DNA from: a virus
Length of the DNA: 64,000 bases
Direction: 5' to 3' (one strand)
Virus record (IMG/VR): IMGVR_UViG_3300020048_000027
Span: 64,001 to 128,000 of that record
This document shows, in pieces, positions 1 through 62,795 of the stretch. Each line of letters opens with the position of its first letter. The stretch's first letter is position 1. The notes under the pieces were generated by a model. That model was not told where the DNA came from. It did no database searches and saw only the letters and a list, made by a program, of their open reading frames with translations. A program made the position numbers and the translations under genes.

Positions 1-222
1 AAGCTTTTGCTACCCCTAAAACTAAAATTGCTGAAAGACCTACTATTATTAGAATAGCTAAACCTATCCATAAAGGAGCAGTTACCCACCACCAAGACCA
101 GTCTATGGTGCCTGTAAGTTTTAATACTAGAAAAATTAAAAAGAGTACTGTGCCTAATCCGGCTGATGATTTATTTTCCATAATGCTTTGTTTGTTTTAA
201 CTATACCTAAATATAAGAAGAA

Positions 223-236
223 GCCTCCGAAGAGGC
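223..236 (-). terminator. GCCTC-TTCG-GAGGC hairpin plus TTCTTCTT inside the promoter spacer (second copy 562-575)
   Basis: Perfect stem with UUCG loop and pyrimidine tail, just downstream of the upstream gene's stop. Confidence 0.65.
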
Positions 237-243
237 AACTTTT

Positions 244-516
244 TTATTGATTTTCTCTTACTGCTTTTAAAAATGCTTCAACTACAAAATGATCTCCACT
301 AAAATATCCTAATTGCTCAAGATTGCCATCTTCAATATCATTTAAAATATTTCCTAGTGTTCTATAAGAATCAATCTGATAGATTATACTTCCAAGATTT
401 CTATAATGATTTCTATAGGATTCTACCGTGTCATCTAAATCAGACCTACGATCGTCATAGATACATGTTGCTACTTGTATAAGTGTTTGTTTTGCAGTTG
501 ATAATAAATTTCCCAT
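244..516 (-). CDS. hypothetical early protein
   Basis: ORF with its own promoter copy. Confidence 0.7.
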   Translation of the reverse strand: MGNLLSTAKQTLIQVATCIYDDRRSDLDDTVESYRNHYRNLGSIIYQIDSYRTLGNILNDIEDGNLEQLGYFSGDHFVVEAFLKAVRENQ

Positions 517-1084
517 AATTTTATATTTGTTTTTAATTATTATATCTAAAGATAAGAAGAAGCCTCCGAAGAGGCAACTTTATTTTTAAAATTTATCACT
601 AATGTAGACTATTTGTGCAGATGTTAATTCAACCTTACACCTCTCAGCTACTTGTGCTACTAGGTTAGGACTTACCAAGTCACTAGATATTTTAAAGTTT
701 ATGATACTTAGAATTACTGTTCTCATATTTTCACTTACAATCATCTTTAATATAGTTTAATTATACCTAAATATACGAAGAATAAATAAGGTAAGCAACT
801 AATCACTTATCTTCTTTATACTTAATTTACTATAATTGGTTATTTATTAATGTTTGAATTATTTCTAAGACATCTGCTTCTGTATACAAATTATCTGTTT
901 TCCAATAATTTCTCCCATCTTTTCTGTCTTGTACTGCTTCAATGTTTTGTTCATTCAACCATTGTCGTGTAGTCATAAATTGTGGAACCATAATCTTTAT
1001 TGTTTTTAATTATACCTAAATATAAGAAAAATATTAATATAAAACAACTTTATACTAATATTTTTCTTACCTTAATTTAAATTA

Positions 1085-1513
1085 CTAATACATCATACAT
1101 TCATTCCTAAATTTCTCAACCAACTCATCCATCATTTTACTTACATCCCCATCCATATTCTTAACAACTACCTCATCCTTAATAACCTCATTCCTAACTT
1201 GAAAATCAATACTAACAACTTCCTTAACCTTATAACCTTCATTTAACAATCCTCTTCCATAAAAATCTCCCCCACCTAACTTAATTCCTTTTACCTCCAA
1301 AATACTTACCCTTAACTTTTCTTCTATCTTTCTTACTTCCTCTATTCCATTATTAACTTCCCCTACTAATTTTCTATATTCCTTTATTAAATACTTATTT
1401 TTACTTTCAAACTCCTCTAAAACCTTATTATTTTCCTTTTCCTTACCCTCTCTAATCCTTTTACTAATTAAATTTACTAAACTTTCAATCTCATAATTTT
1501 TTAAATTTCCCAT
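1085..1513 (-). CDS. hypothetical early protein with an almost C-free coding strand
   Basis: 142-aa ORF with its own promoter; leader identical to that of 244..516. Confidence 0.8.
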   Translation of the reverse strand: MGNLKNYEIESLVNLISKRIREGKEKENNKVLEEFESKNKYLIKEYRKLVGEVNNGIEEVRKIEEKLRVSILEVKGIKLGGGDFYGRGLLNEGYKVKEVVSIDFQVRNEVIKDEVVVKNMDGDVSKMMDELVEKFRNECMMY

Positions 1514-1577
1514 AATTTTATATTTGTTTTTAATTATTATACCTAAATATACGAAATAACTTTGTAACTAGCAACTT

Positions 1578-1847
1578 TTACACTATGTTTGTTTTAAAAT
1601 ATTTTTGTTTTATAATGTAATAGTAATATAGCTTCCTACTATCGGATGCTGTTTTCCATAGTATTCTCTTATATAAACCTTTCTCTAACCCCCTTCTTAA
1701 CATCTCCGCATATTTCTTATTACTTTCATAAGAAGAACTTCTGTAATAATTAAATACTTTTTCCTGTATTTGAGATTCTGTTTGAGGGTTTGAAGTTTCA
1801 AGAAACTTAACAATTTCCTTTACTGAACGGTATTGGGCTGTTTTCAT
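1578..1847 (-). CDS. hypothetical protein, possibly winged-helix-like (likely start MKTAQY)
   Basis: ORF; the promoter at 1865-1904 places the start at 1847. Confidence 0.6.
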   Translation of the reverse strand: MKTAQYRSVKEIVKFLETSNPQTESQIQEKVFNYYRSSSYESNKKYAEMLRRGLEKGLYKRILWKTASDSRKLYYYYIIKQKYFKTNIV

Positions 1848-1922
1848 AATATGTTTGTTTTTAATTATACCTAAATATACGAACAATAATTAAGGTAGGC
1901 AACTAATTACCTACCTTTTTTA

Positions 1923-2219
1923 TTACCTGCTTATAACCTTCTCAATAGCTTCAGATCCCATATTTACCATATCTAATACTAAGTTCCAATTCCCTTCATC
2001 TGCTTGCCATTCTATTTCAAATGGTTTGTGTTTCATTCCCCAATTTGATAAAGCAAAACCCATTCCGGACATTTTAAATTCCTCCCTATCATTTTTAGAA
2101 AACCTAATTGTACCTTTGTTATCACACATACAAGAAACTGTGTAAACTATTACTTCTTTTGCCCCTTGTTTAATTTCTAATTTAGGAGGACTAATTCTTA
2201 ATTCTGAATACCTACTCAT
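1923..2219 (-). CDS. hypothetical protein
   Basis: ORF with its own promoter. Confidence 0.7.
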   Translation of the reverse strand: MSRYSELRISPPKLEIKQGAKEVIVYTVSCMCDNKGTIRFSKNDREEFKMSGMGFALSNWGMKHKPFEIEWQADEGNWNLVLDMVNMGSEAIEKVISR

Positions 2220-2465
2220 AACCTATATTGTTTTTTAATTATACCTAAATATACGAACAATAATTAAGTTAGACAACTTTTATTTAAGTTATTCTAAGTC
2301 ATTTCCATGTTCATCTAAATATTCCCCCCAATCTATCCTATCATCAGGATGACATTGACTATTCCAATCATTCCAAGCTTTTCTTAATTCTACTAATGTT
2401 ACCATATTTTCTTTTAACTATACCTAAATATAAGAACTTTAATTAAGTTAGACAACTTTATTTAC

Positions 2466-2759
2466 CTATTTCTTTATAATAGTCCTGATTATATTTTCTA
2501 TTCCTGTAGGAACTACCTGTTCATTTGTATTCTGAAGATATACAGGACCTGTGTAAGTAAACGTATTAAACTCAGGATTAACAAGTTCTTCTCTAGGGGA
2601 AGGCTGTCTTACAATTTCTGTTATCCTTCTAGCTCCATCAAAGGACCTAAATTCATTGCAGGTAGTCCTATACCAATTACCTTTAATCTGCACCTCTAGT
2701 ACAGCAGCTGTATTGAAGTCATACTTCTTCTTTACTGTTCCTCCCTTTTTCTCTCCCAT
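2466..2759 (-). CDS. hypothetical protein
   Basis: ORF. Confidence 0.65.
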   Translation of the reverse strand: MGEKKGGTVKKKYDFNTAAVLEVQIKGNWYRTTCNEFRSFDGARRITEIVRQPSPREELVNPEFNTFTYTGPVYLQNTNEQVVPTGIENIIRTIIKK

Positions 2760-2803
2760 AAAAAAATATTAAGTTAAACAACTAATCACCTACCTTTTTT
2801 CAC

Positions 2804-3049
2804 TCACTTTTCTAGTAAGTACCAACTAGACATTCCTTCCTCAAAAAACATTTTTACTTCTTCTTCACTTTCAAATACAAGTTTCTCCTCGTCCTCTTTC
2901 ATTTCATTAATTTCTTCTTCATCATAATCTTCACTCAACTCCTCTAATACAAACTCCTCTAAAGTCTTACCTTCTTTCAAATCAAAGAATTCAATATCAT
3001 TCTCCATCATTCCCCAATCATTTGTAACTATAACTTTTAATACTCTCAT
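2804..3049 (-). CDS. highly acidic small protein (possible DNA mimic)
   Basis: About 28 D/E versus 8 K/R in 81 aa; own promoter. Confidence 0.6.
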   Translation of the reverse strand: MRVLKVIVTNDWGMMENDIEFFDLKEGKTLEEFVLEELSEDYDEEEINEMKEDEEKLVFESEEEVKMFFEEGMSSWYLLEK

Positions 3050-3122
3050 AATATGTTTGTTTTTAATTATACCTAAATATATGAAAAAGAATTAAGGTAC
3101 CCAACTAAATGACTACCTTTTT

Positions 3123-3359
3123 TTAAATTTGTTTAAGCGGATAATAGTAAATCACGCCTAAATCCATTTCCCTATCCCTCTCACATTCAGTTGTAAAGCC
3201 AAAGGGTTTTAAAATATCCTTTAACTCCTCTAAATTAACCTTATCCCAATCCCCAAATTTAAGGTAAGGATGAGTATTCATAAAAGCATAACTACTATCA
3301 ATTTCTTTATCTGTCCAAACCTCTAAAACTCCTAAAACATCTCTACTTATATAATTCAT
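3123..3359 (-). CDS. hypothetical protein
   Basis: ORF with its own promoter. Confidence 0.65.
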   Translation of the reverse strand: MNYISRDVLGVLEVWTDKEIDSSYAFMNTHPYLKFGDWDKVNLEELKDILKPFGFTTECERDREMDLGVIYYYPLKQI

Positions 3360-3446
3360 AATATCTATTTGTTTTTAATTATACCTAAATATAAGAACTT
3401 TATTTAATATAAGCAACTAATCTTTTTTAAAAAAACATTGTTACTT

Positions 3447-3486
3447 AGTTGCCTGACAAAGATAAGTTTCGTATCTTTAGGTATAG
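3447..3486 (+). promoter_or_regulatory. Divergent (+ strand) copy of the phage promoter
   Basis: AGTTGCCTGACAAAGATAAGTTTCGTATCTTTAGGTATAG matches the consensus and spacing. Confidence 0.75.
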
Positions 3487-3490
3487 ATGA

Positions 3491-3586
3491 AGATCTAGGG
3501 GCGTAGTGTAACACCAACACTGGAAGAGTAGACGGGCGGGTACCTCACAGTCTGCAAAACCCTAAACACCCTCTATGTGCAGATCT
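3491..3586 (+). ncRNA. candidate structured small RNA
   Basis: GC-rich, no ORF (ATG AAG ATC TAG); nested pairings TAGGG/CCCTA, AGTGT/ACACT, GTAGAC/GTCTGC, flanked by AGATCT. Confidence 0.4.
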
Positions 3587-3623
3587 CACCCCATATCCCT
3601 AATCTCCCTATATACCCCTTTTT

Positions 3624-3730
3624 CCTTGATAGAGGTAAAAATCCTTGATAGAGTGCTTTTTCCTTGATAGAGTGCTTTTTCCTTGATAGAGGTAAAAATC
3701 CTTGATAGAGTGCTTTTTCCTTGATAAGAC
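3624..3730. repeat. Six tandem 19-bp repeats with core CCTTGATAGAG (iteron-like)
   Basis: Cores start at 3624, 3643, 3662, 3681, 3700 and 3719; linkers are GTAAAAAT or TGCTTTTT. Confidence 0.95.
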
Positions 3731-3902
3731 TAAATTGCTTGAATGGAAGGACAAAGCTTGAATAGGTGTTTCCTATGGTAGAATTTAAGCATATCCCTTA
3801 AAAGTACTATAGCAACTTCCCCTTTGACTATGTAAAATCTCTAAGATATACTATAACTTTGTTACTTGTACTTGTTTTTAGATGTTTTTCCATAGGGACT
3901 CC

Positions 3903-4157
3903 CTATACTACTTTACTTTTTCGTATTCTTTTAAGAGTCTCTCGTAAGGACTCACGTAGTACATTATTAAAGGTAGTTAGCATCTCTAGATCTTCCAAGG
4001 AAGGGTCGGCAGGTAGGTGCTTCCTGTTAAAGTTAACTATGAGTTTTTCTAAGGCTCCCTTATGACTCAAAGAATCAGCACTATTAATCACCTTAAGTAC
4101 CCAGAAGGTATCTGAGTATATAGATCTGTATTCAATATTTAGTCCTCTTGTTTTCAT
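3903..4157 (-). CDS. hypothetical protein
   Basis: ORF preceded by a promoter copy at ~4158-4194. Confidence 0.6.
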   Translation of the reverse strand: MKTRGLNIEYRSIYSDTFWVLKVINSADSLSHKGALEKLIVNFNRKHLPADPSLEDLEMLTTFNNVLRESLRETLKRIRKSKVV

Positions 4158-4960
4158 ACTGTAAAGATAAGAAGAATTAATCTAATCTACAACTCTCTAC
4201 CCTTATCTTTTTACCCCTCTCTCTTTAAGGTTATTTTTTTATCTATGTGAGATGATTAATAAGGCAGGAGAACGTAGGGAAGAAGGCGGGAAGATGCCGT
4301 GAGGACAGTGGGAGATACTAAAGGCGGGAGGACGTAGTGAGGATGCCGTGAGGATATCGTGAGTCTCTAGTGATTTTTCTATATTCTGAGAGAATTTATG
4401 AAGGGAGAGAGGCGCATCCCTATTCTTTACTTCCTTTCTAACATACCTGCCTTACTTTCTATTTATACACTACTATGATATCATTATAATATTACTTTAA
4501 TATCATTATTATATTATATGCATATTATTTTAACTAAATACTTACCCTTCTATTCTCCTCTTCTTATAACTATATGATTACTTTCGTTTCTTTATAGGTT
4601 TTAATAGGTTCTCTCCTTAGTTCAATTGTCTAATAAGCCTTTCTATTGTACCACTCTTACCCCTCTTCATATACGTTATTCTTTCAGTATGACTTTTATA
4701 TCTCTTTCAGTATCCTATCTCTATCTCTCCATACAGTCAATTAGGATTCAAGTATGGTCTGCTTATCAATCTCCCAATCACCTGTCAGTTCAGGATGGAA
4801 CTCCCAGAACATTCCAGATCTTAATACCTTATCGTAATCTTCTTTTGTTTTTATTTGCCAGTACATCTTAATGAATTTATCTGAGTTATACTATTGGTAT
4901 TGGTCTTTATGTTTATATCTTTCTCTCTAGTGCTTGTAGTTCTTTGATTATTACTTGAGG

Positions 4961-5158
4961 CTATTTATCTCTCCAAATTTTTACTATTTGATAGGTTCCC
5001 CAATATCCCATTCCCACTCCAAGTAAGACTATAACTATTATTAGAATCTTTTGTATTATCACAAAGCTTACTATACTTGCTATGATTGCTAGTACCGTTA
5101 AAATTAATACAACTGCTATTAAGTGATCTACTATACTGTCTTTCATTTTATTTAACAT
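4961..5158 (-). CDS. small membrane protein (2 TM)
   Basis: Two hydrophobic stretches. Confidence 0.6.
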   Translation of the reverse strand: MLNKMKDSIVDHLIAVVLILTVLAIIASIVSFVIIQKILIIVIVLLGVGMGYWGTYQIVKIWRDK

Positions 5159-5193
5159 GCTATCTTACTATTAGTTTATAAGTTATATTATAA

Positions 5194-5457
5194 TCAATCC
5201 TTAATCCTTAAACCATACTGTAGGTCAAACCAGCTAAAGGTCTGTGCAGAAGCAGTCTTACTACATCTATATGCTTTGCTTATTAAAGGAACAGCATATG
5301 CTTTAAACTCATCATGCTGTCTGGAGGTCATGGTCCATTCACTATACCATTTAGGTTCGGCTGTTGCCTGGTCTAACGTCTTACCAACCATTGCCAATTG
5401 ATACTCAATCAAATGATCAGCCAAAGTATGTCTGGTAAGTTTAAGTTTCTTTTCCAT
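5194..5457 (-). CDS. hypothetical protein (likely start MEKKLK)
   Basis: ORF 5194..5517; internal ATG preferred. Confidence 0.55.
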   Translation of the reverse strand: MEKKLKLTRHTLADHLIEYQLAMVGKTLDQATAEPKWYSEWTMTSRQHDEFKAYAVPLISKAYRCSKTASAQTFSWFDLQYGLRIKD

Positions 5458-5633
5458 CTTATTACTATTCATTCTAGTTATTCTAACTCTATCTCTAAGC
5501 CCCATTCTAACCACCAAATACCAAGCCTATAGTTTCCTGTTAACATCCTATCATAGGTCACCACCACCGTAGGCAGTAGGTATAGTTGATATAGAGGTTT
5601 ATTAAATGATATTTTCATACTCCTTTATTTATA

Positions 5634-5732
5634 TTATTAATAACTTTCCTGCAAGGCAGGTTAAATATTTTAAAAATATGTGAACTTATTAATAACTTTC
5701 CTGCAAGGCAGGTTAAATATTTTAAAAATATG
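5634..5732. repeat. Two exact 47-bp direct repeats, each containing a CCTGC-AAG-GCAGG palindrome
   Basis: 5634-5680 and 5686-5732. Confidence 0.95.
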
Positions 5733-5802
5733 CGCGAGACGAAATTAATAAGACGCCCCCTCTTCTGCCTGTACTCTTTATACTGCCTGTACTCTTCTCC
5801 TT

Positions 5803-6240
5803 TTAATATTTATTCCAACCCGTTCGCCTAGCTTTCAATAGTCTATTACTTCTATATCCAATATATTCTAAAAATTCATCCGTTGGCTTTACTCCATGCA
5901 CTAATACATAATGTGGTGCAAAATCTTCCGGCCATATCCATTCATCTGTTTGATATTCTTGATTACCCAGTCTTTCGCCCGTAATTCTACTTTTAGTCGA
6001 ACCCATATAACCAATTTCCTTTGCCGTTTTCTCTTTCAATCGTATCAATTCGTAAATATCGTTTGCCTCTACTGGTGATAATACGTTTGGAATTGGTATT
6101 GGATACTCAACTTTATCTCTGGATGATATCATTTCTCGTGTTATTGAAGTCCTACCATCAGCTGATGTCATTGTTACCATGTGAGGTGGTTTTTTCCAAT
6201 ATCCCTCTATGTTTCTACCTTTATAATCTTTGTGTATCAT
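5803..6240 (-). CDS. hypothetical protein
   Basis: 145-aa ORF. Confidence 0.7.
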   Translation of the reverse strand: MIHKDYKGRNIEGYWKKPPHMVTMTSADGRTSITREMISSRDKVEYPIPIPNVLSPVEANDIYELIRLKEKTAKEIGYMGSTKSRITGERLGNQEYQTDEWIWPEDFAPHYVLVHGVKPTDEFLEYIGYRSNRLLKARRTGWNKY

Positions 6241-6267
6241 AATTTACCTTTCTTAAAAAAAATATGT

Positions 6268-6564
6268 TGTCGAAAGTAGAAAGTATATAGACTATGTCAA
6301 ATATAAAATCAATGTCAAAAACCTTCCTCTACCTCAAAGGCAAAGTTAAAACCTAAGTCTCAGTTACAATAGCCAATTATCTGTCTAGTTTTAAAGATTT
6401 CTCTTTCTCTATGAGCTTTCAGTAACTTGTCTATTAGTTGAGTTCTATCTCAGTTTTAGTTTTTTTGTAGTGGAAGCGAAGTTTAAATAAGGCCCATGGC
6501 CGTTTAATTGCTTAGATTGATATCTGTCTCTTATGTAGTTTTAGAAATCCTTCCACTTTCGACA
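6268..6564 (-). ncRNA. candidate ~300-nt structured RNA downstream of the coiled-coil gene
   Basis: 5' TGTCGAAAGTGGAAGG pairs with 3' CTTTCTACTTTCGACA; no long ORF. Confidence 0.55.
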
Positions 6565-6611
6565 CAAAACCAAAAGACATAGGCTTCTGCTTAGCCTTTT
6601 GGTACCATATA

Positions 6612-7523
6612 TTATTTTAACTCTTTTAAAAACATGTCAATTGTTGATTGAAAAATTGGATCAACTTCTATCTTAAGGTTAGCTGCTGCTTGAATACTTA
6701 TCTGACGTGTTACTTCAAAGTCTTTTACTGCTTGCTTTTGATCATCCACCCACTTACTGTATGCATTCTTATACTCAACATTCTGTTTTAACATAATCTC
6801 ATTCACCTCAGATTGTATATCAGCTCTCTCTTTTGCAATACGAGCATTCTCTAAGGTAGTTAAGTTTTTTACCTTTGCTTTAGAGTAGTTTACCTTTTGT
6901 TCATAATCTCTATGAAGTCCTGCTAGTTGCTCATGTAAAGTCAATAGCTCAGCTGCAGTATGATGAACCTTGATTATCATCGGAGTCCTCTTCCCTGCTT
7001 CAATTTCTATAAACTCTAAGGTTTTAATAGTAGGAAGTTCAGATCTTAATCTATCTAGCTTACCGCCTTTATGTATAAATTGTCCAATATGTGAAGCATA
7101 TGACTCAGCTTCTAGGAATTCATTATACTCTTTTGTTGACAACTGTGCCCATCCCCAGTCCTCATTTACCGCCGATGGTAAATCCTTAACAACTGATCTA
7201 GGCATTTGAGGCATTTCTACAGCATACTCATAATTTTCCTGTTGAATATTTTTAATCAGCTGATCTTTTGCTTTAATATTTTCCATTAGGAATGCCTGGG
7301 TAGCATGTAGTCTTGCTTTTTCAGTTAACATCTCTACTACACCTTTAGGCATACGGTTTCCTTGTTGATCCATGTATGTTACGTTATCAATAACTACTGC
7401 TTTGCTAGCGTTATTAATATCCGTCAATGCTGCTGTAATATCTTTTGAACGCTGATTGCATAGGTTTGAAACTGACTGTGCTGTAGACATTGATAGTCCT
7501 TTTGATGCTAATGAATTTTTCAT
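6612..7523 (-). CDS. helical/coiled-coil hypothetical protein
   Basis: 303-aa ORF, own promoter at 7551-7590. Confidence 0.8.
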   Translation of the reverse strand: MKNSLASKGLSMSTAQSVSNLCNQRSKDITAALTDINNASKAVVIDNVTYMDQQGNRMPKGVVEMLTEKARLHATQAFLMENIKAKDQLIKNIQQENYEYAVEMPQMPRSVVKDLPSAVNEDWGWAQLSTKEYNEFLEAESYASHIGQFIHKGGKLDRLRSELPTIKTLEFIEIEAGKRTPMIIKVHHTAAELLTLHEQLAGLHRDYEQKVNYSKAKVKNLTTLENARIAKERADIQSEVNEIMLKQNVEYKNAYSKWVDDQKQAVKDFEVTRQISIQAAANLKIEVDPIFQSTIDMFLKELK

Positions 7524-7655
7524 ATTTATATCTTTTATTTAATTTAGTATCTATATTTAAATATACGAATTATATTTGTATTATGCAACTTTTTACTAAG
7601 TTTTTTAAAGTATCTTATCTTCTCGGTACTACCTTAGTAATGTTGTTACTTACGT

Positions 7656-8042
7656 CTAATCTATTAAACCTACTGTAGGAAGTTTCTTTCTTATTTTAAA
7701 TTCTATTTCGCTTAACAGTCCTTCCTCATTTATAAACATTTCATTTTTTCTTCTATCTCTATCTTTATGAATATACTCCAAAACAATTGCGATTACTTTT
7801 TCAGCAAATTTTACTCCTGTTTTACTTGTATAGTAAAACTTATGGTTTGTAATTTGTATATGGTCATCTCCTATAAAAATATAGTAGTTAAGTTTCTTAT
7901 TCTCTATAAGATAGTTATCTGTTGTAGGATCAACTAGTACCGTTGTATCTAAATGCTTTAGGATAAGTTCCACAATATTTATAATTTGTGTTTCTTTTGG
8001 TGTAAAGTTAATTTTCTTCTTTAGGAAATTTATCATTTTCAT
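7656..8042 (-). CDS. hypothetical protein
   Basis: ORF. Confidence 0.65.
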   Translation of the reverse strand: MKMINFLKKKINFTPKETQIINIVELILKHLDTTVLVDPTTDNYLIENKKLNYYIFIGDDHIQITNHKFYYTSKTGVKFAEKVIAIVLEYIHKDRDRRKNEMFINEEGLLSEIEFKIRKKLPTVGLID

Positions 8043-8309
8043 AACTTTTAATGTAACTAATTAAATTATTATTTGTGTAAAGTTTTACCACATTGATGAC
8101 AGTATACAACATTATCAACCCAATGTAACCTACTAAAAGGATGAATACATGTTTCTTGTGATTCTTTTATAGGATTTTCCATTATTTAAAATTTAGAATA
8201 TAATACATTTTTGCTGTATGAATTAATTTATAACATTTAGAACCAAATTCTGTTTCATCTATTAAATTATTATAAAAGTTTATTCCTTTTGTGAATCTAG
8301 TTTCCATCT

Positions 8310-8540
8310 TTATGTTGGTAAAACTTTTACTACTCTTAGCCATACATTTTTAAAATACCATAAATATGGTTTTTCTGTCCAATGAGTTTTATTAGTACCT
8401 GCGTTAAGTAATACCATAGGCATCCCTAATAATAAAATAGGAAGTACAGGTATAAAAATTATTAACATAAGTATAAACATAAAAATGAAATACATAAAAA
8501 GTGAAATTATATCTGTAATCATTATTAGTATATTTTTCAT
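8310..8540 (-). CDS. small membrane protein
   Basis: Long hydrophobic segment. Confidence 0.55.
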   Translation of the reverse strand: MKNILIMITDIISLFMYFIFMFILMLIIFIPVLPILLLGMPMVLLNAGTNKTHWTEKPYLWYFKNVWLRVVKVLPT

Positions 8541-8595
8541 TTGATTATTTGTTTAATTATTAATGTATAACGTCTGTTTTTAGCATAACTTATAT

Positions 8596-8850
8596 CTAAA
8601 TATACGTTAAATAATCGTAGCAACCAACTTTATTTTGGAATTTAGGTATCTTTTCTATATACTTATTTAAATTACTTTTCACTATAAACCGCTTAGGAGT
8701 AATCCATATTCCAACGCTCCCTCCATTATAGCATATTTTCTTTAATCTACCTGTCTGTGTGTTAAAGATCTTTTTACATGTTGAAATTTGGATGTGTGGA
8801 TAGTCTACAAATCTCCATTTCAAAGTGTAATTAATTGATATTGAATTCAT
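8596..8850 (-). CDS. hypothetical protein (cassette-associated)
   Basis: ORF. Confidence 0.6.
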   Translation of the reverse strand: MNSISINYTLKWRFVDYPHIQISTCKKIFNTQTGRLKKICYNGGSVGIWITPKRFIVKSNLNKYIEKIPKFQNKVGCYDYLTYI

Positions 8851-8891
8851 TATGCTTTGGTATTTGTTAGTATATTAATTGTTGTAAAACA

Positions 8892-9179
8892 TTAAAGCTG
8901 ATGTTGGCTATCGTATATTTGTGAAAGTTCAGTAAAAGTATATTCTTTGTCTTTGTATAAAAACATTCCATAGCCTAAGTACCTCGCGTCTTGTTTTATC
9001 CAATCCCATAAAGTTATTTCTTCCTTTTCCTTTAACGATTTTACAACTGCGGGTAAAATTAACGCTTGCTTTTTCGCTTCTTTTAAACATTGAATAAATG
9101 CCCATTTCTCTTTTTCAAGTCCATCTAAACTATCACACATTTCTATTTTTCTCTCTAAGTACTCTATCATTTTTTCCAT
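8892..9179 (-). CDS. modular hypothetical protein spanning an attC-like core
   Basis: Reads through GCA GTT GTA (LPAVVKSL). Confidence 0.65.
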   Translation of the reverse strand: MEKMIEYLERKIEMCDSLDGLEKEKWAFIQCLKEAKKQALILPAVVKSLKEKEEITLWDWIKQDARYLGYGMFLYKDKEYTFTELSQIYDSQHQL

Positions 9180-20031: not shown

Positions 20032-20859
20032 TTACTGGTTTAATTTATATTTATAATTAGTTATAGTTTCCTTATAGTCTTTAATGCCTTGTAAATGTTT
20101 TGAATTAGTATTTACACCACTTCCTATATAACTGCCCCATTTTTCTTTAGCAAACTTATGACAATTTCTCTCGTCTATCTGCGATTTTTTAATTTCTGTT
20201 TCTGATTTTGCTGTCAATGATACAAAATGATAAAAATGACATGTATAACTTCTAAAGGTATTAATTCCGTTTAACCTGTACTTTAAAAATAAGTCCCAAT
20301 CCGCTACATATCCTGCCGAAGAAGGGTACTGTTCATCATAGCCCCCTACTTTATTCCAGTTTAATTTACTTGTATAGATTGGAAAGGTCGATCCTTCATT
20401 AGTTACTTCTTCTTTACTGCAAGTATTCTCAAACTCCCAATACGACTTCAAGTCAAAAGTTTTTGGATCTCTACCCAGGTCTTTTATAATAAATTGAGGA
20501 AACATGCTACTGAAAGGTTCTATCTGGTTAGGAGATACTACTGTGTTAGTTATATCTAAGCTGCTTAAGCTTACGTCCCAATTCTTTGGAAAAACATTGT
20601 CATCGTTCACAATTAGTATATTGTTGCTCTTAGCTTGAAATACCCCTAAGTTCAGTATACGTGCTACTCCTATGTTTTCTTCTAATATTAAGAAATTAAC
20701 CTTCCCTTTCCATTTCTCAATTACATGTTTATTTTGATCTGCCATACCATCTACCAGTACCAGTATCTCATTAATTCCTTGCTGCCCTTCGTATGCAGAC
20801 TTTATACACAGATCCAAAGCATCAGGACAGTTATAAGTAGGTATAAGCGCTGTTATCAT
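20032..20859 (-). CDS. glycosyltransferase family 2
   Basis: LIPTYN, VDG, NDD, GGYDE, DWDL motifs. Confidence 0.85.
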   Translation of the reverse strand: MITALIPTYNCPDALDLCIKSAYEGQQGINEILVLVDGMADQNKHVIEKWKGKVNFLILEENIGVARILNLGVFQAKSNNILIVNDDNVFPKNWDVSLSSLDITNTVVSPNQIEPFSSMFPQFIIKDLGRDPKTFDLKSYWEFENTCSKEEVTNEGSTFPIYTSKLNWNKVGGYDEQYPSSAGYVADWDLFLKYRLNGINTFRSYTCHFYHFVSLTAKSETEIKKSQIDERNCHKFAKEKWGSYIGSGVNTNSKHLQGIKDYKETITNYKYKLNQ

Positions 20860-21554
20860 AGTATACTAATTTTTTCCCAATCTGTTAATGGTGCTAGCCA
20901 AGCTGTCTCACCATGGGTTGAATATCCCGGTATTGAAGATAGTAATATACGATTACTTTTACCGAGCTCCAAGAACATATCAAAATCTCTTGGGTAAGTT
21001 CCTGTCGTATGTTTTCTCAGTATATGCTCTACCTCTCTCAATGTCTTTACCTTTGCTGCAAAAGTCATAGTAGTTGAATTAGTTATTTTCCAATGAGTAG
21101 ACTTTGTCAAATATACTCCTGTTGGTTCGGCTCCTCCCTGACAGTATGGGTTTCCTCCTCTTGAAGGATCTAGATACTTATCAGGATGGTCATAAAGTGT
21201 AATAAAAGAAGCTCCTAATTCTAAACCTTCCTTGATTACTTCTTCACTGCCCGGTTTATGTAAATAATCATTCTCAATAAAATAGACAATTTCATCATCG
21301 TCATAACTTAAAGCCTCGTCTAATGCAAGGTTAAATGTCTGAGCTCCTGATCCTTGAGAGGTATATAAGATAATACTCCTACTAACGTACTTTTGAACCA
21401 TATCATCTGTCTCTGCCGAAATATTATCTGCTATAACAGACCAGGTACTATTTTGAAATACCTTGGTAGCATTTCTAAGGCAGTTTTCATTTGTGATATA
21501 GCCCGGCTTCACCTTACTGTACCCCGCATCTGATATTCTATAAATTATTCTCAT
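20856..21554 (-). CDS. GT-A fold glycosyltransferase
   Basis: YFIENDYLH motif and cluster context. Confidence 0.65.
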   Translation of the reverse strand: MRIIYRISDAGYSKVKPGYITNENCLRNATKVFQNSTWSVIADNISAETDDMVQKYVSRSIILYTSQGSGAQTFNLALDEALSYDDDEIVYFIENDYLHKPGSEEVIKEGLELGASFITLYDHPDKYLDPSRGGNPYCQGGAEPTGVYLTKSTHWKITNSTTMTFAAKVKTLREVEHILRKHTTGTYPRDFDMFLELGKSNRILLSSIPGYSTHGETAWLAPLTDWEKISIL

Positions 21555-22288
21555 ACTAGTTTGTTTAGTGCTGCTTGCATTTTAACTTCTTCTGACCTTT
21601 GCTTAACTCTACCTGGACCTCCATTAATATATATGTTAGGTAAGTGATGAATTATATTATCCTCAAACTCCGATATACAGATTACCTTTCTCATACCACA
21701 GTGTTGGTATATATCTGTGTTAGTCTTACACTTCAAGCTGTATTGATCATTGCCTAAGAACCTAGTAAAGTCCTTTTCCTTCTTTATATTTGCTAACTGT
21801 TCCTTAGATATTAAGAAGGAAGCTTGATGTACATTAGTAAAGTGTGCAAACTTTTTACCCTCAAACTCTTCTACTGAATTATAGTCCCAGTCATAATGAG
21901 CATGGTATGCAGGGTAGAACCTACCTGTCTCATTTTCCTCATACTGTATCAATCCAGCTATTCTATCTTTAGGAAGTATTTTTTCGTACTCAATAAACTT
22001 ATCTACATGATGCTCTTTCCATAAATGATCATTCTCTGAAAAAATAAAGTAATCAAAGTTTTCTGATTCTTGATCAATCAATTGTCGACAAGTCATCGGA
22101 AGTAGTTGATAGTTGTCTAGCTTTACAATGTTTACCTGATCGATTCCTATTATAGTCGGAAGAGGTATATTGGAATGTACAACAACAGTTACTTGATATT
22201 TCTTAAAAGATTTTAACTCTGAAACTACTTCTTGAAGGTATTCTAACTGTTCTTCTCCAAAATTTACTAAAACTGCTAATATTTTCAT
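21551..22288 (-). CDS. putative glycosyltransferase
   Basis: FIFSENDH, IHHLPN; context. Confidence 0.5.
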   Translation of the reverse strand: MKILAVLVNFGEEQLEYLQEVVSELKSFKKYQVTVVVHSNIPLPTIIGIDQVNIVKLDNYQLLPMTCRQLIDQESENFDYFIFSENDHLWKEHHVDKFIEYEKILPKDRIAGLIQYEENETGRFYPAYHAHYDWDYNSVEEFEGKKFAHFTNVHQASFLISKEQLANIKKEKDFTRFLGNDQYSLKCKTNTDIYQHCGMRKVICISEFEDNIIHHLPNIYINGGPGRVKQRSEEVKMQAALNKLV

Positions 22289-22295
22289 GTTCTTT

Positions 22296-23297: not shown

Positions 23298-23312
23298 TAT
23301 TATTATTAGTTA

Positions 23313-23906
23313 TTATAGTAGTTTAGTAAACTGATCGACTGTAATTAAATTTAAAGCATTAACTCTATTTTCGTCGAACCATTTATATTCTAAAACTTTA
23401 GGAAGAATATAGTTACATTTACCTTTACCTTCTCTTATTACGCCGATTCCTAAATCTGTGTCCACTACATAGGTAGTATACTTTGTATGGTTATTATAAT
23501 TAAACTCGACTAAAGATCGCCATACATCTCCTGTCCAGCAGTTTGATACTCTAGGAACTATTTGAGATTGTTCATCAGGAGGAGAACAATCATGAAGTAT
23601 CACAGCTCCGTGTTTATTTAAAGCTTTAATCGAATTTGCTATATCTTTTGTTACCTGTTCTGAATGATGTAAACCGTCTATAAAGATAATATCATATGTT
23701 TTCTCAGGATATGTTTCAAAAAACTCATCAGATGTCATTCTATAAGTCGGGTTAGCATGACTGTATTGACCGGTTGAAGGATCTATGCTCTCTTTACTCT
23801 CTACTTCAATCTGCTTAAAGTTTAATCCCGTATCTAATCCTATTTCTAGATAACTTTTATAATTATACTTCTTTATGAGTCTTTGTATAACTTCTGTTCT
23901 TACCAT
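23313..23906 (-). CDS. class I SAM-dependent methyltransferase (Methyltransf_24-like)
   Basis: YLEIG, DIIFIDGLH, ILHD. Confidence 0.8.
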   Translation of the reverse strand: MVRTEVIQRLIKKYNYKSYLEIGLDTGLNFKQIEVESKESIDPSTGQYSHANPTYRMTSDEFFETYPEKTYDIIFIDGLHHSEQVTKDIANSIKALNKHGAVILHDCSPPDEQSQIVPRVSNCWTGDVWRSLVEFNYNNHTKYTTYVVDTDLGIGVIREGKGKCNYILPKVLEYKWFDENRVNALNLITVDQFTKLL

Positions 23907-24685: not shown

Positions 24686-24686
24686 G

Positions 24687-25304: not shown

Positions 25305-25324
25305 ATTCTTTTATTTCTAGTATA

Positions 25325-27593: not shown

Positions 27594-27613
27594 TATATCT
27601 ATGTTTATTTTTT

Positions 27614-42980: not shown

Positions 42981-43256
42981 TTACCCCTCTCCGTAAAGAT
43001 CATAAACCTTAGGTGGTGGAGGTGGTGGAGCTTCAAGCCATTCTATAGCCATTAGGTACCCTTTTAACGGTTCTAATCTATAACCTCCTTTATGTCCTGT
43101 GCTTCTCATATAGACGGCTAGTGTCTCTACTAACCCGTCTATTGTACTTCCCACAGGGTTCGAACTCTCATCTACTAATTTCCACCTATCTCCCGGTGGC
43201 TGCCTTTTTGCTATTATTTTAAAGCTTATTTGACCCTCTTCTTGATTTTTATGCAT
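42981..43256 (-). CDS. hypothetical protein
   Basis: ORF. Confidence 0.65.
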   Translation of the reverse strand: MHKNQEEGQISFKIIAKRQPPGDRWKLVDESSNPVGSTIDGLVETLAVYMRSTGHKGGYRLEPLKGYLMAIEWLEAPPPPPPKVYDLYGEG

Positions 43257-44173
43257 TATTGTTGCGGTGTTTTTTCAAAGAGTATTTCCGTGTTCTCGTA
43301 CTCCCACATTATGTTTTTTATAAGAGTGTTGTTTGTTGCTCTAATCGAGTGAATATCTAATCCTCCTCTTCTATTGTAGATGTTTGCTACAAGTAACTCT
43401 ACCGGACTATACTTCTTCTGCAATGTATCGTACATGATCTCTGTTACGTTTTCATGAAAGTGTTGAGAATCTCTAAAGGAAATTATATACTTTGTTAATG
43501 CTTCTTTGGTCGGGGATTTTTTTCCTCTCATAAAAATATAACAATTTCCTGTATCCTTCTGGTTTGTAATTTCGCAGTTACTTCTTAAGTTAGCTGTATG
43601 AAAGCTGAAGTTATCTATTTCTTTTGCTTCAACCATATCAAGTAATTCAGGGTTTTCCTCATACTCACTCATCTCGTACCCTTTGTCGTCCACATTCTCA
43701 AAATAGTAGTTAAAAGGTGCTTTTGCAAAGCTGGCTGTGTGTGCTATATGAAGGGTTACTTTTACATCATCTACCAGTGCTTCCGAAAGGTCTTGTCTAA
43801 TTATATCTTCAACAACTTCCTTACTTTGAAATTTCTCTAAATCAAAAGAATTTAGATATAACTTAAATGATTTGGACTCCACCATAGCTTCAGAAGAAGC
43901 CGAATACTTTACTTTAAGCACACCTGTAACTGGCATCCCGGTCGGACCTATAAAAGACATCTCGTATGCATGCCAAACTTCATAACCTACAAAGTCACTA
44001 TTTTTAATCTTTGAATTAGTCCTATTTAAAGATCTAGGTAAGGGCACCAGTAGTGTTTTATCATGCTCAGTTGGGGTAACATAAGCTTTTACCAGTGTTC
44101 CGTCTCCTGCTTTCCCTAAATGCTTTGAAGCTAATTCTCTTAATTTATCTATTCCGTTGTCTTGTTCTTTCAT
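43256..44173 (-). CDS. queF: NADPH-dependent preQ0 reductase QueF (bimodular)
   Basis: ESKSFKLYLNSF, LRSNC..T.Q.D, FHE, RRGGLDI. Confidence 0.9.
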   Translation of the reverse strand: MKEQDNGIDKLRELASKHLGKAGDGTLVKAYVTPTEHDKTLLVPLPRSLNRTNSKIKNSDFVGYEVWHAYEMSFIGPTGMPVTGVLKVKYSASSEAMVESKSFKLYLNSFDLEKFQSKEVVEDIIRQDLSEALVDDVKVTLHIAHTASFAKAPFNYYFENVDDKGYEMSEYEENPELLDMVEAKEIDNFSFHTANLRSNCEITNQKDTGNCYIFMRGKKSPTKEALTKYIISFRDSQHFHENVTEIMYDTLQKKYSPVELLVANIYNRRGGLDIHSIRATNNTLIKNIMWEYENTEILFEKTPQQ

Positions 44174-45290: not shown

Positions 45291-45848
45291 TTAAATATAA
45301 ACTCCAACTTCTTTAAAGAATCTTACCCACAGGTATAACGAACGGTCTCTCAATTTACTGTACAGTTCATCCAAGCTTGTAAGGGTCTCTACATTAAAGT
45401 ACTCCTTCATTAAAACTTTTCCTTCGTCAACTCCTGCTGTAACTCTATGTATAACACATCCTGCTTGTTTCATCTCGCCATTCTGTATTGCAGTGTATGC
45501 TCTTTCTTGAGGATCTTTTCCTTTAAGCTCTGGGTATTTTGTAATAAGTCCAGGATGTCCATTTATTATGCTATATTTTTCACATATCTGTGGTGGCATT
45601 ATTCTAAGCCATCCATGTAGGGTAATAACAGCATTCTCGTATCCGGATAGTATATCTTCTAACTCTTCTACTGTTGGCTTATTTGATACAAATGTAACCT
45701 TCCCCTCTAATTCTTGCGATACTGTTCTGAGGTGTTCTGGTCTTTCATTTGTTACTATAAGGTCAGGCCATCTTCCTATCTGTTTACTTATATCTACAAT
45801 TTCTTTTCCTGTTTGTGAAAAGAAAGCTACATGTTTTTTACTCTCCAT
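45291..45848 (-). CDS. PurN-like formyltransferase, DpdN-like (preQ1 formylation)
   Basis: HGWLRI, INGHPG, H.V..GVDEG; near queF and the DpdA-like gene. Confidence 0.8.
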   Translation of the reverse strand: MESKKHVAFFSQTGKEIVDISKQIGRWPDLIVTNERPEHLRTVSQELEGKVTFVSNKPTVEELEDILSGYENAVITLHGWLRIMPPQICEKYSIINGHPGLITKYPELKGKDPQERAYTAIQNGEMKQAGCVIHRVTAGVDEGKVLMKEYFNVETLTSLDELYSKLRDRSLYLWVRFFKEVGVYI

Positions 45849-46022: not shown

Positions 46023-46832
46023 TTACTCTTTTGCTTTACCATTCCAGTATTTTCTAAACTCATTAATATTATATTCTACCAACTCTAAGTTAATTTCAGA
46101 CTTTGAATAGTTAATAAGCTCAAATAACTTCTGAGATTCTTTTGTGTACAGTCCAAAATTCTCTTCATACTTTATTCCTTTAATGGCATGCACTACCGGA
46201 TTACTTGTATCTATAGAATATATCCAAGGATACATACTATATAGCTTCCCTTCAACGGGTAAGCCTATTCCTAATAGGTGGTGTTTCTTTTCTATATTAA
46301 TAACACCGTTGCTAAGCAGGTCTCCAAGTAGCTTTGCTCTTCCCATTGTCCAGCTTATATGCTTGTTAGGATGCGGAAAAGTCTCTTCGTAGTAACTGTA
46401 ATCGAAAGATATTGCAATCATATCTACATTTGCAATTTTATCCATATACTCGTAACAAGCTGCAATTTGATTATAATTCTTACCCTGAACTACTCCTATT
46501 TTCTTTCCTGGTAAGTTCTTGTGCTTTTCATTCCAGGTTGCCATTTGAATCATAGTCTGTAGGCCATCCTCTAATGCATCTGGAACTATATACCAGGTTG
46601 GTCTTAATTTATCAATCCACTTAGCAAATTTATCTGCATCAAAAGCTTCCTCTAGCTCAAATATCGAATTGTCTAGTATAACTTCTCTACCTTCCGCTAT
46701 TGCATCTTTGAATAGGTTATAATATTCCTCGTCTTCCTCAAAAAGGTGCACAAGAGCATAATCCCCGTCGGTAATTTTTTGAACTTCCTTAAATATGCTT
46801 TTAGGAGCTTCGTGGTATGTTTTTATTGCCAT
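46023..46832 (-). CDS. TGT-like TIM-barrel protein, DpdA-like deazaguanine insertion enzyme
   Basis: VILDNS, IVPD, GVVQG, HHLLG, SIDTS; pathway context. Confidence 0.65.
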   Translation of the reverse strand: MAIKTYHEAPKSIFKEVQKITDGDYALVHLFEEDEEYYNLFKDAIAEGREVILDNSIFELEEAFDADKFAKWIDKLRPTWYIVPDALEDGLQTMIQMATWNEKHKNLPGKKIGVVQGKNYNQIAACYEYMDKIANVDMIAISFDYSYYEETFPHPNKHISWTMGRAKLLGDLLSNGVINIEKKHHLLGIGLPVEGKLYSMYPWIYSIDTSNPVVHAIKGIKYEENFGLYTKESQKLFELINYSKSEINLELVEYNINEFRKYWNGKAKE

Positions 46833-48239: not shown

Positions 48240-48947
48240 TTACCTCTTTCTTACCGCATCACTTACGTGCATCATAAACTCAGCTCGTGCAGAATCCTCC
48301 TCTAGAAAACAACCTGATAGTTTTGTTGTTTGCATTGAGGCTCCTTGATGTTTTATACCTCTACAGCTAACGCATGAATGAGTAGCGTCTACCGTAATTG
48401 CGACTCCTTGATTCCCTTCACAGATAAGGTTTATAGCATTGTGTATGGAAACTGTTAACTGTTCCTGTATTTGACCTCTTCTACCAAAATGCTCTACAAT
48501 ACGGTTAATTTTAGATAATCCCACTACCTTTCCATCCTTAGACGGTACATAAGCTGCGGTTACATATCCCCGTATTTCTTCATGGTGGTGACTACACATT
48601 GAAATTAACGGTATATTGGACTCAACAACTAGGCCATCGTATCCATCAGAGGGAAAGGACGTAATACTGGTTAGTGGTTCAAATCTTCCTTGCCACTTTT
48701 CCATATATGCCTTTGCAACCCTCATTGGAGTATCAGATGAATTAGGATCATTTTCCCAATCACATCCTAATGCTGTAAGGAAATCTGCAAAGGCAGCAGC
48801 TGCATTAACGATGATAGTACTCTTTTCTATCTCGGTTAAGCTAGCTTCAGGACCGTCCTTTTTTTGCTTCTCAGCTAATTGAGTAGAAATTCCATTTGCG
48901 AAACCTGCTTGAACTAATTCGGTCCCTTTAATAAACTTTTTTGCCAT
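48240..48947 (-). CDS. folE: GTP cyclohydrolase I
   Basis: DTP.RVAK, SMCSHH, GLSK..R, QIQE, H.C..CRG. Confidence 0.95.
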   Translation of the reverse strand: MAKKFIKGTELVQAGFANGISTQLAEKQKKDGPEASLTEIEKSTIIVNAAAAFADFLTALGCDWENDPNSSDTPMRVAKAYMEKWQGRFEPLTSITSFPSDGYDGLVVESNIPLISMCSHHHEEIRGYVTAAYVPSKDGKVVGLSKINRIVEHFGRRGQIQEQLTVSIHNAINLICEGNQGVAITVDATHSCVSCRGIKHQGASMQTTKLSGCFLEEDSARAEFMMHVSDAVRKR

Positions 48948-49832: not shown

Positions 49833-50669
49833 CTATACGTACCTGTTTTTACCAAACATCATAATATGGAGTCTAGGTGCAAATCTCCAACCTCTTTTTA
49901 ATGCTTGCTCTGCTATCCATCCCGTTCTACTATTTAAAGTATTAACATCTACTCCTTCTGGCATTAGACATACATCTGAAGGTTTAAATTCAGTTAACTG
50001 TTGTAATATCTGTTCGATTTCTTCAATATCCCGGTCTGTTGCTACTACAAATTTTAATTGAAAATCTGATAAATACTTTTTGCTTCCATCAATAAAAGAT
50101 TGAATTACAGGTATATTAATTCTTAACTTTTCATGTCTACTGGCCCATTTCTCACTATACTCAATTCCTGTACCTGCAAGATTTGCTTGATGGGGAACTG
50201 AGGTTGATAGTTTAGGAGACATTGAAACTAAGTCTGTATGTTGTGAAATTTTTTCACTAAAGATAGTTGCATTTGTCTCAATAGTTGTGTGGTACCCTAA
50301 TTTCTGTAGTGTTTCTAATAGCTCCTCTAATGCTTCTGTTTGCATTGTAGGCTCACCTCCTGAAACTACTATATGTTTGATTTTTTGAGGTACAGTGTTC
50401 TCTAGTACTATTTTAACTATCTCATCAATAGTCATTATGTTTTTTTCAGGTCTATGTGATGAGTAAGGTGTATCACAAGGCGATCCTTTTCCATCTAATC
50501 CAATCCAAGCACATCTCAAATTACATGCTGAAGTTCTTATAAATAAACAAGCTGTTCCTGTTAATTTTCCTTCTCCTTGAAAAGTACCTGCATACTTAAA
50601 TCCGGTTGAATCATTTATAAGGTTATCCTTTATAGGAAATATTCCTCCTTGTACTAAGTTTATTTTCAT
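49833..50669 (-). CDS. queE: 7-carboxy-7-deazaguanine synthase (radical SAM)
   Basis: QGEG, FIR...CNLRC...CDT.YS, SGGEP, IETN, MSPK. Confidence 0.92.
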   Translation of the reverse strand: MKINLVQGGIFPIKDNLINDSTGFKYAGTFQGEGKLTGTACLFIRTSACNLRCAWIGLDGKGSPCDTPYSSHRPEKNIMTIDEIVKIVLENTVPQKIKHIVVSGGEPTMQTEALEELLETLQKLGYHTTIETNATIFSEKISQHTDLVSMSPKLSTSVPHQANLAGTGIEYSEKWASRHEKLRINIPVIQSFIDGSKKYLSDFQLKFVVATDRDIEEIEQILQQLTEFKPSDVCLMPEGVDVNTLNSRTGWIAEQALKRGWRFAPRLHIMMFGKNRYV

Positions 50670-51908: not shown

Positions 51909-52481
51909 TTATTTTTTTCTATCATCGTATTCTAATACTCCTTTCTCAATTGCGTAAGCTTGAATAGTCTCTCCTTGTACAGACTGAAAAAACATTCTTT
52001 CTGTATCTGAGATGCTATCGTCAAAGCATTCTGTAGAGCAGTTTGGTGTTTCGTAAATTTGTACTTTGTGTATTTTTAGTCCTGTTGGAGTATTTGCATA
52101 TAGAGTATTTGAAAGAAGTTCCATTGCTAAAAATACTTCTTTAGCAATATTCTCTACCGAAGGATTACAGTATTCTCCTTCTCCATTCAAAGACATCAAC
52201 CAAAGTTTAGTTCCGTAGTCTCTTGTAGTTTGAATAAGTAGTTCGTCTTTTGCATTTAAAAGCATTCCATGATCTAGAATATCATCTATCCATTGACAGA
52301 ATACTCTTTTAATCTCTTTGAAGTCGATTGCATACCCAATCTCTTCCATATTCTCAAATGAGAATGTTAACTCATAAAGGTACGTATGACCATGAATGTT
52401 AAAGCATTTCATGGACTCATTCATAACTCTGTGACCAGAGTCGAAGTTGCCTTTTCGGCTAGTGTATTGGATTCTTTTCAT
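51909..52481 (-). CDS. queD: 6-carboxy-5,6,7,8-tetrahydropterin synthase
   Basis: GHR...C..IHGHTY, DF, LDH, PSVENIA, ET. Confidence 0.9.
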   Translation of the reverse strand: MKRIQYTSRKGNFDSGHRVMNESMKCFNIHGHTYLYELTFSFENMEEIGYAIDFKEIKRVFCQWIDDILDHGMLLNAKDELLIQTTRDYGTKLWLMSLNGEGEYCNPSVENIAKEVFLAMELLSNTLYANTPTGLKIHKVQIYETPNCSTECFDDSISDTERMFFQSVQGETIQAYAIEKGVLEYDDRKK

Positions 52482-61925: not shown

Positions 61926-62795
61926 TTATTTATTATGGTTCGTTAATAAATCTAAAACATACGTTCTAGCTGTGTGCCAGCCTACAGGACCACTTTCATC
62001 TGCATATAATACAGGGTCGGGTTTTCCCAGTTTAATAAAAGCTTCGATACGTTCAACACTTGATGCTGATTTATAGTCTGAATACCAAGTTCCTTTAGTT
62101 GAGTTTTCGGCTATCATTTTTCCATGAGAATGTATAAAGATGGGTTTATATGAAGTATTAGTTCTTGAATAAACTTCATCAAAATCTAATCCTAATTCCT
62201 TACACAATACTTCTCCATCTTTCAAGATATCAAATTTATCCCCTTCTAAATAGGGAGTAAAAAATCCAACTCTTTCAGCATCCCAATTCCCTAGTCTAAA
62301 AGCTAAGTCGTCAGCATCCCTAAATTCTTGTCTACAGTCTGGATATATATTATGATCTCCTGCATGAATTCCCATTGCAATATCACAAGTCTCTCCTGTA
62401 CGATTTGCAACTGATAAAGCTACTGCTTGAGCAATAGAAGCAAATATCTTGTTTCTATTAGGAACAACTGTTTCTTTCATATTATCAGATTCGTAATGAC
62501 CTTCAGGAACTTCTTTACCTCCTGTTACCAAAGCTGAATCTAATAGATCAACTAATCCGTCTAGTTTGATTTGACGATAAGTTACAAAATTCTGTTCCCA
62601 ACCTGTACCCCTAGTTGACATAAGATTGTTAATATAATCTACCAACGATTGAGCTCTCTCTAGCTCTACTCTGTGTTTTTGACCATAGTCAAATGAAATA
62701 GCTGTTACGCTATCATACTCTTTTAGACATCTAAGTAATAAAGTACTTGAGTCCATCCCTCCTGATAAGGATATTACAACATGTTTTTTAGGCAT
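61926..62795 (-). CDS. queC: 7-cyano-7-deazaguanine synthase
   Basis: SGGMDS, FDYGQKH..E, VVPNRN, YPDCR. Confidence 0.93.
   Translation of the reverse strand: MPKKHVVISLSGGMDSSTLLLRCLKEYDSVTAISFDYGQKHRVELERAQSLVDYINNLMSTRGTGWEQNFVTYRQIKLDGLVDLLDSALVTGGKEVPEGHYESDNMKETVVPNRNKIFASIAQAVALSVANRTGETCDIAMGIHAGDHNIYPDCRQEFRDADDLAFRLGNWDAERVGFFTPYLEGDKFDILKDGEVLCKELGLDFDEVYSRTNTSYKPIFIHSHGKMIAENSTKGTWYSDYKSASSVERIEAFIKLGKPDPVLYADESGPVGWHTARTYVLDLLTNHNK

Follow-up and report, generated by a model that had tools for sequence, protein, structure and literature searches.

Natural selection has kept cytosine out of an entire transcription unit of a large, uncultured phage of Flavobacterium type. The unit carries a small early gene within the 64,000-nt window that we analyzed, which corresponds to positions 64001-128000 of a 153.6-kb genome; excluding C from its coding strand is the same as excluding G from its template strand. 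The phage has 23 tRNA genes and nearly all of its genes on one strand, and it is a PolA phage related to Immutovirus, with a PolA 69% identical to that encoded by Flavobacterium phage vB_FspM_immuto (hereafter immuto).

The first-pass annotation of this DNA had reported a single template-strand G between positions 1027 and 1525, and our base count agreed: the plus strand of this tract contains A159, C129, G1, and T210, with the sole G falling in the only Gln codon of the gene. On the minus strand the tract comprises 12 nt of leader, the coding sequence, and a 58-nt trailer, and the 70 non-coding nucleotides of the transcription unit hold no C at all. Given that 13.4% of the plus strand is G, finding at most one G in 499 nt has a probability of ~10^-29. 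The two longest G-free runs of the window (324 and 174 nt) adjoin each other to make up this tract, and the third longest is 85 nt. The first C beyond the tract, at 1026, is a conserved promoter C. The sense strand of the gene is 28.7% G and 0.2% C, and the neighboring genes all have more G than C too. Ranking genes by coding-strand C content across the genome, a check suggested with the first-pass annotation, placed this gene last of 337 ORFs (0.23%), the runner-up having 3.3%. The flanking genes, which have the same promoter type, use C normally (11-12%), as had been claimed.

A second ORF, at 2804..3049, had been described as also depleted. The count was correct (8 C in 246 nt), but this gene retains synonymous third-position C (TTC, GAC, and TAC) and is therefore only mildly depleted and outside the rule that governs the C-less gene. 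Separately, 3.4 kb before the start of the window, a 94-aa early gene (genome positions 60322-60606, minus strand) has a 149-nt C-free run as its C-terminal half and 12 C in its N-terminal half; possibly, a C-less module has been joined in it to a normal one to give a chimera.

Exclusion of C has shaped the protein as well as its codons. A codon count verified that Ala, Pro, Thr, and His are missing and that Ser is encoded only by AGT, Leu by TTA or TTG, and Arg by AGA or AGG. Residues that require C (A, P, T, H, and Q) account for 1 of 142 positions, compared to 21% of the phage proteome (P ~10^-13). Moreover, given this protein, the codon usage of the phage predicts 24.9 synonymous C, and none was observed (P ~10^-14). 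The deficit in residues, the deficit in synonymous C, and the C-free flanks together show that neither chance nor protein composition accounts for the pattern. A codon- or tRNA-level cause was rejected because the non-coding flanks are C-free as well. By our estimate, stops would be expected at ~12% of codons in a sequence with the A/G/T composition of this gene, and an open frame of 142 codons is thus not accidental. We conclude that 1085..1513 is a real protein-coding gene and forms a one-gene early cassette, with a host-type promoter, an A-rich leader, the ORF, and a hairpin.

The 142-aa protein has a predicted long N-terminal helix and a conserved C-terminal motif, IKDEVVVKNMxGDV..DEIVEKF. 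Searches of Pfam and PHROGs returned no match for the protein and its homologs (family 1, below), for a second low-C family (family 2, below), or for the neighboring early proteins, and a search of the ESM Atlas with the 142-aa protein gave sub-threshold matches only. A single-sequence AlphaFold model had a pLDDT of 51 and was unusable. We also considered a Ugi-like acidic glycosylase inhibitor or DNA mimic; the protein has no such similarity in Pfam, PHROG, or the Atlas, and its pI is 5.8. When viral contigs were searched with a degenerate DNA pattern based on the conserved KLKNYEI..LV motif, no match appeared; in metagenomes the pattern gave four matches, all due to chance, such as one to the C-terminus of APRT. 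Loci related to A3 or A4 were sought in viral and metagenome contigs, and none was found.

Features of the C-less cassette, its homologs, and the predicted G-replacement genes. Positions are numbered along the window.
Feature	Position	Strand	Description
C-free tract	1027..1525	-	G-free template; one C (1201); from base counts
C-less coding sequence	1085..1513	-	142 codons, ATG start; 142 aa, 16.6 kDa, pI 5.8
Lone C of the tract	1201	-	Codon 105, CAA, the only Gln
Predicted promoter of the C-less cassette	1536..1576	-	AGTTGC at 1571-1576, 19-nt spacer, TATATTTAGG/TATAAT at 1536-1551; by consensus only
A-rich leader, AATTAAAAACAAATATAAAATT	1514..1535	-	One conserved C at 1526
Terminator-like hairpin	1022..1070	-	22 bp, nearly all A-U and G.U; GUUGU in loop; U-run in 3' arm
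Promoter core of the next cassette	1009..1022	-	By consensus
Acidic early gene, 81 aa	2804..3049	-	8 C (3.3%)
QueF (bimodular)	43256..44173	-	Above Pfam cut-off
DpdN-like formyltransferase	45291..45848	-	PF00551; 57% identical to the immuto counterpart beside DpdA3
DpdA3-type DNA guanine transglycosylase	46023..46832	-	71% identical over 98% of length to immuto; 40% to the CP220 group
FolE (GTP cyclohydrolase I)	48240..48947	-	Above Pfam cut-off
QueE (radical SAM)	49833..50669	-	Above Pfam cut-off
QueD (PTPS)	51909..52481	-	Above Pfam cut-off
QueC	61926..62795	-	Above Pfam cut-off
Family 1 homolog, L061			420-nt gene; 1 C
Family 1 homolog, L062			0 C; C-free run of 485 nt
Family 1 homolog, L064			0 C; G 41%; C-free run of 492 nt; contig 47% GC, neighbors 19-28% C
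Family 1 homolog, L063			31 C (7.6%), normal C content; same promoter type

The C-less gene is the sixth in an early array of ~22 one-gene cassettes (window 200-3400, minus strand; genome 57-67.4 kb), each built as AGTTGC-N19-TATATTTAGGTATAAT-TAAAAACAAA..ATG plus a hairpin. The predicted promoter is Bacteroidota-like (-33/-7) and recurs in ~22 near-identical copies across the array. Matches to TATTTAGGTATAAT number 19 in the window, against 3.8 expected, and 22 predicted promoter cores stand directly before an ORF in the whole genome. The ~20 other genes with this promoter contain 3-15% C, and all have G in the template. The cassettes at 1549 and 552 have identical leaders and share their first four codons (MGNL).

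The hairpin that follows the C-less gene has a predicted folding energy of -20.3 kcal/mol (z -7.3), which none of 200 shuffled sequences matched, and its loop holds the -33 box (GTTG) of the next promoter. In layout it matches the G-C hairpins of the neighboring cassettes while doing without C; a second hairpin, at 1885-1935 (z -3.4), also has a GTTG box in its loop. At the other end of the unit, the one leader C that the window phage keeps has been lost from other C-less cassettes (twice on contig L061, and on L062 and in immuto), so that the C-free stretch of these sister cassettes extends from the promoter's -7 element onward.

The C-less cassette is accessory, being present or absent among close relatives. 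In L002, a metagenomic variant contig that is 98% identical, the two small genes that come next in the window (830-991 and 586-744) are missing, a pattern that suggests recombination at the promoter and hairpin repeats. Upstream of the array, the stretch at ~3440-4600 is richer in G+C and has short ORFs only; an Rfam scan of window positions 1-9000 gave no match there or elsewhere, and the stretch could represent a regulatory region or some unclassified RNA.

A HMMER search of the full library identified four distant homologs, 32-40% identical to the window gene, which together with it make up family 1. Protein motifs at both the N and C termini are conserved across the family. Whether homologs stay C-free while diverging had been proposed as a check on the initial observation. 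Three of the four do, with 0-1 C at 32-39% protein identity (L061, L062, and L064), L063 being the exception. Proteins from the four C-less lineages, including the window gene, are 33-39% identical to each other, except for L061 and L062 at 68%, and their genes differ at ~170-185 nt per pair, or at only 75 for L061 and L062. In each of the other pairs, 90-97 of these differences are between A and G, versus 0-2 between C and T. C-lessness has thus lasted through ~180 substitutions per pair, and a single hypermutation event was rejected on this ground. Since relatives remain C-free after divergence and sister leaders are C-free from the -7 element onward, a single hypermutation event and a codon-level cause are excluded. 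The constraint is long-lasting and spans the transcript.

A second, unrelated early-gene family, in related phages, obeys the same rule. With 5 C in 357 nt, gene 128 of immuto stands out as the C outlier of that genome, and its homolog in a complete 162-kb contig, G002, has 4 C and encodes a protein 40% identical. The two genes differ at 116 of 309 nt, and five of these differences involve C. A third member, on L061, has no C. Proteins of this second family are acidic, and across 54 members the median number of C-requiring residues is ~2, with nearly all having 0-8. The acidic 81-aa product of 2804..3049 was considered as a member and rejected, as no relation was found. Both families occur on one 1.9-kb contig (L061; JGI Ga0480390_0059800), at 168-536 and 1398-1817, with two normal genes (8% and 12% C) between them, indicating that C-free and normal cassettes are interleaved.

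The first-pass annotation had also proposed that this genome encodes a 7-deazaguanine replacement of G. That premise is well founded by homology, as the phage has a full set of DpdA3, FolE, QueD, QueE, QueC, QueF, and DpdN genes, although the Pfam TGT model fails to detect the DpdA3 gene. Immuto, which belongs to the same phage group, shares the DpdA3, FolE, QueE, QueC, QueF, and DpdN genes in addition to having a near C-less early gene. LC-MS of immuto virion DNA detected no dG, only formyl-preQ1 (fdPreQ1), corresponding to 100% replacement, and DpdA3 enzymes give complete replacement of G (Hutinet et al., bioRxiv 10.1101/2023.04.13.536721). By analogy, every G in the DNA of the window phage has very probably been exchanged for a modified base. 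The same paper describes the base and its synthesis and says nothing on avoidance of G in a template.

Other genes in this part of the genome include a GT1 glycosyltransferase (50707-51906, minus strand) between QueE and QueD, with no tblastn counterpart in immuto, in three other genomes examined (G001, G002, and G003), or in Campylobacter phage CP220, and a large cluster of sugar-nucleotide and glycosyltransferase genes at 20032-32155. It may be that the modified base carries further decoration, or that a virion or host glycan does. Among the 23 tRNA genes, which lie at 54.7-60.7 kb, ARAGORN predicts a tRNA-like gene with an unusual two-base anticodon, 'ct' (56414-56489, minus strand).

We then compared the occurrence of C-less genes with G modification. 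Among the whole genomes screened, such a gene is present in the window phage, immuto, and G002, and all three of these complete genomes encode a DpdA3-type enzyme; the gene set of G002 resembles that of Cellulophaga phage phiST, of the non-bulky dDG type. No C-less gene was found in two members of the same phage group, G001 (93% complete, with the same gene set and a DpdA3 69% identical) and G003, nor in CP220 (100% dADG), phiST (100% dDG), Chryseobacterium phage MA9V-3, Cellulophaga phage phi3ST:2, or the control phi10:1, which has no FolE. Because all tested carriers fall in one phage group, the association amounts to roughly one independent observation. Avoidance of template G is no general or necessary companion of full G replacement. 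As a general rule, then, the tie between C-free genes and G modification that had been suggested does not hold: six G-replacing relatives and other phages (G001, G003, CP220, phiST, MA9V-3, and phi3ST:2) do without such a gene, and L063 has normal C content.

What is being selected against? The loss of one letter from gene, leader, and terminator, together with five amino acids, points to an agent that punishes every C in the RNA or every G in the template. A C in the RNA, a G in the template, and a C in the non-template strand fall at the same positions, so that selection on any of the three would leave the same trace in the sequence. The near-zero tolerance for C argues for a cost per site, and the accessory, swappable nature of the cassette argues for a counter-defense or takeover gene.

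The explanation we tentatively favor, as plausible though short of probable, is that this is an accessory early cassette, probably for counter-defense, which lacks modified G in its template and so remains readable under host attack on that base. Every G in the genome would be formyl-preQ1, and the template strand of the cassette would be the one stretch without the modified base, such that agents acting at modified G could not interrupt its transcription. The leading candidates for such agents would be host enzymes, either DNA glycosylases or nucleases, whose excision of 7-deazaguanines leaves abasic sites or nicks behind; hindrance of RNA polymerase by the base itself is a less likely alternative. 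Template-strand lesions or nicks halt RNA polymerase far more than do those on the other strand. A small protein, probably a counter-defense or takeover factor, could then be made from incoming DNA while the remaining genome is attacked, at the price of being limited to 15-16 amino acids.

Host activities of this kind exist. Diverse host DNA glycosylases (Dag1, Dag2, and 17 of 22 additional clusters) act in defense specifically against phages with 7-deazaguanine DNA, and they inflict damage that scales with modification density (bioRxiv 10.1101/2025.10.29.685425). Acting on every modified G, Dag1, Dag2, and their relatives would not see a strand that lacks G, and the authors of that study expect phage countermeasures. 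These enzymes were, however, found in Vibrio integrons, not in Flavobacteriia, and no phage inhibitor or template avoidance was described. The dDG-like gene set of G002 fits attack at modified G better than it fits an argument from a bulky base, and the accessory, swappable nature of the cassette fits a counter-defense gene. Against this explanation, 129 G lie on the tract's non-template strand, all open to attack; the promoter of the cassette keeps three template G, and the window leader keeps one C; and L063, with the same promoter type, has 31 C.

Selection could instead act on the RNA, the main rival reading, which we consider real but doubtful. A C-less transcript would escape ddhCTP made by prokaryotic viperins, a shortage of CTP, Rho (by having no YC sites), or C-dependent RNases or deaminases, and the gene would serve counter-defense or takeover whatever the modification of the DNA. 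Viperins have reportedly been found in archaea and Bacteroidota. The entire transcript is under the constraint, its leader and a hairpin rebuilt without C among the parts affected, and the near-zero tolerance fits a cost paid per C. That many G-replacing phages lack the trait, and that it appears on a contig of 47% GC (L064), would also be accommodated, the patchy link to modification being explained. Still, neither the host nor either protein family is tied to a named agent, every complete genome with the trait has a DpdA3-type G-replacement enzyme, and chain termination or a lack of CTP would tolerate C in the 3' trailer, which is C-free. Avoidance of Rho has been documented as a source of G-over-C and purine bias, in which the coding strand is likewise selected through the nascent RNA and an excess of C over G is harmful (Dierksheide et al. 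2026, PMC13323073). That bias is genome-wide and graded, however, and predicts no lone zero-C gene among neighbors with G>C; it requires only G>C, which all the neighboring genes already satisfy, leaving zero C unexplained.

Benefits incidental to a three-letter strand are an unlikely cause. A C-free strand cannot hold a palindromic restriction site with a G:C pair; the 509-nt RNA is weakly folded (-47 kcal/mol, no better than shuffled sequences), which could favor the Shine-Dalgarno-independent initiation of Bacteroidota; and the GC skew of ~+1 over the tract could promote R-loops from the G-rich non-template strand. None of these benefits requires strictly zero C, though, and restriction avoidance would be redundant if the DNA is fully modified, whereas R-loop or origin roles need no conserved frame, and two protein families are conserved. 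Very unlikely, in our estimation, is the proposal of the first-pass annotation that a bulky modified G slows or blocks elongation by unmodified host RNA polymerase and that a G-free template provides a readable first gene, perhaps one that adapts the polymerase. The phage does encode the full fdPreQ1 pathway, and in vitro the RNA polymerases of E. coli and B. subtilis are strongly inhibited when deazaG bears a bulky 7-substituent, but truncated transcripts were absent and the effect was placed at initiation (PMC4838386), and in its G the promoter of this cassette matches all the others. The ~20 other early genes with template G, the position of this gene as sixth and not first in the array, and the near C-less gene of G002, whose predicted dDG would be unsubstituted and fully tolerated by RNA polymerase, likewise tell against it. 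The least credible account is purely mutational, with C-to-T deamination in a burst or ongoing, on a non-template strand exposed by heavy transcription and without selection. The tract does coincide with the transcription unit, the surviving C at codon 105 sits where a C-to-T change would make a stop codon, and the lost 3' arm of the hairpin resembles a C-to-T converted copy. But neighboring cassettes with the same promoter are unaffected, four lineages have stayed C-less through ~180 substitutions per pair while keeping their protein motifs, the hairpin has been rebuilt as a significant 22-bp stem and not left to decay, and G reaches 41% in L064, which deamination does not yield.

Messages lacking ACA that resist MazF, and synthetic G-less or C-less cassettes for in vitro transcription, are known. 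The C-less gene resembles these in that a target is removed from a whole message or a template needs one NTP fewer, but MazF recognizes a 3-nt motif and the synthetic cassettes are man-made, whereas here a whole letter is missing from a natural gene, which costs the protein five amino acids. Our literature searches turned up no account of cytosine-free genes in nature. The arrangement of the array recalls the PeSL cassettes of the T4-type phages RB49 and phi1, in which small, non-essential early ORFs lie between repeats of a strong host-type promoter and a stem-loop terminator and are shuffled by recombination (Arbiol et al. 2010, PMC2839356). Here there are ~22 copies of promoter, ORF, and hairpin, with the stem-loop joined to the promoter, and presence/absence variants such as L002. 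No nucleotide exclusion was reported there, however, and the present array has a Bacteroidota-like promoter in a PolA phage; as this is not a T4-type phage with a sigma70-type early promoter, the array works like PeSL cassettes without being one of them.

Taking attack at modified G as the agent, we suggest, more tentatively still, that G-replacing phages carry swappable 'three-letter' starter genes that are proof against such attack, that deazaguanine-directed defense would have its first inhibitors in the products of families 1 and 2, and that removal of a letter from a whole transcription unit may be a general viral way to keep a counter-defense gene expressible under the same defense that it counters. 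The question is directly testable, as immuto is cultured (on Flavobacterium sp. LMO8) and has a sister gene. Transcription units free of one letter offer a simple signature for finding such genes in viral genomes. If the agent were identified, two orphan protein families would gain a role, and either of two things would be revealed: a new counter-defense logic aimed at deazaguanine-directed glycosylases, or a natural means of escaping nucleotide-analog or CTP-directed immunity.
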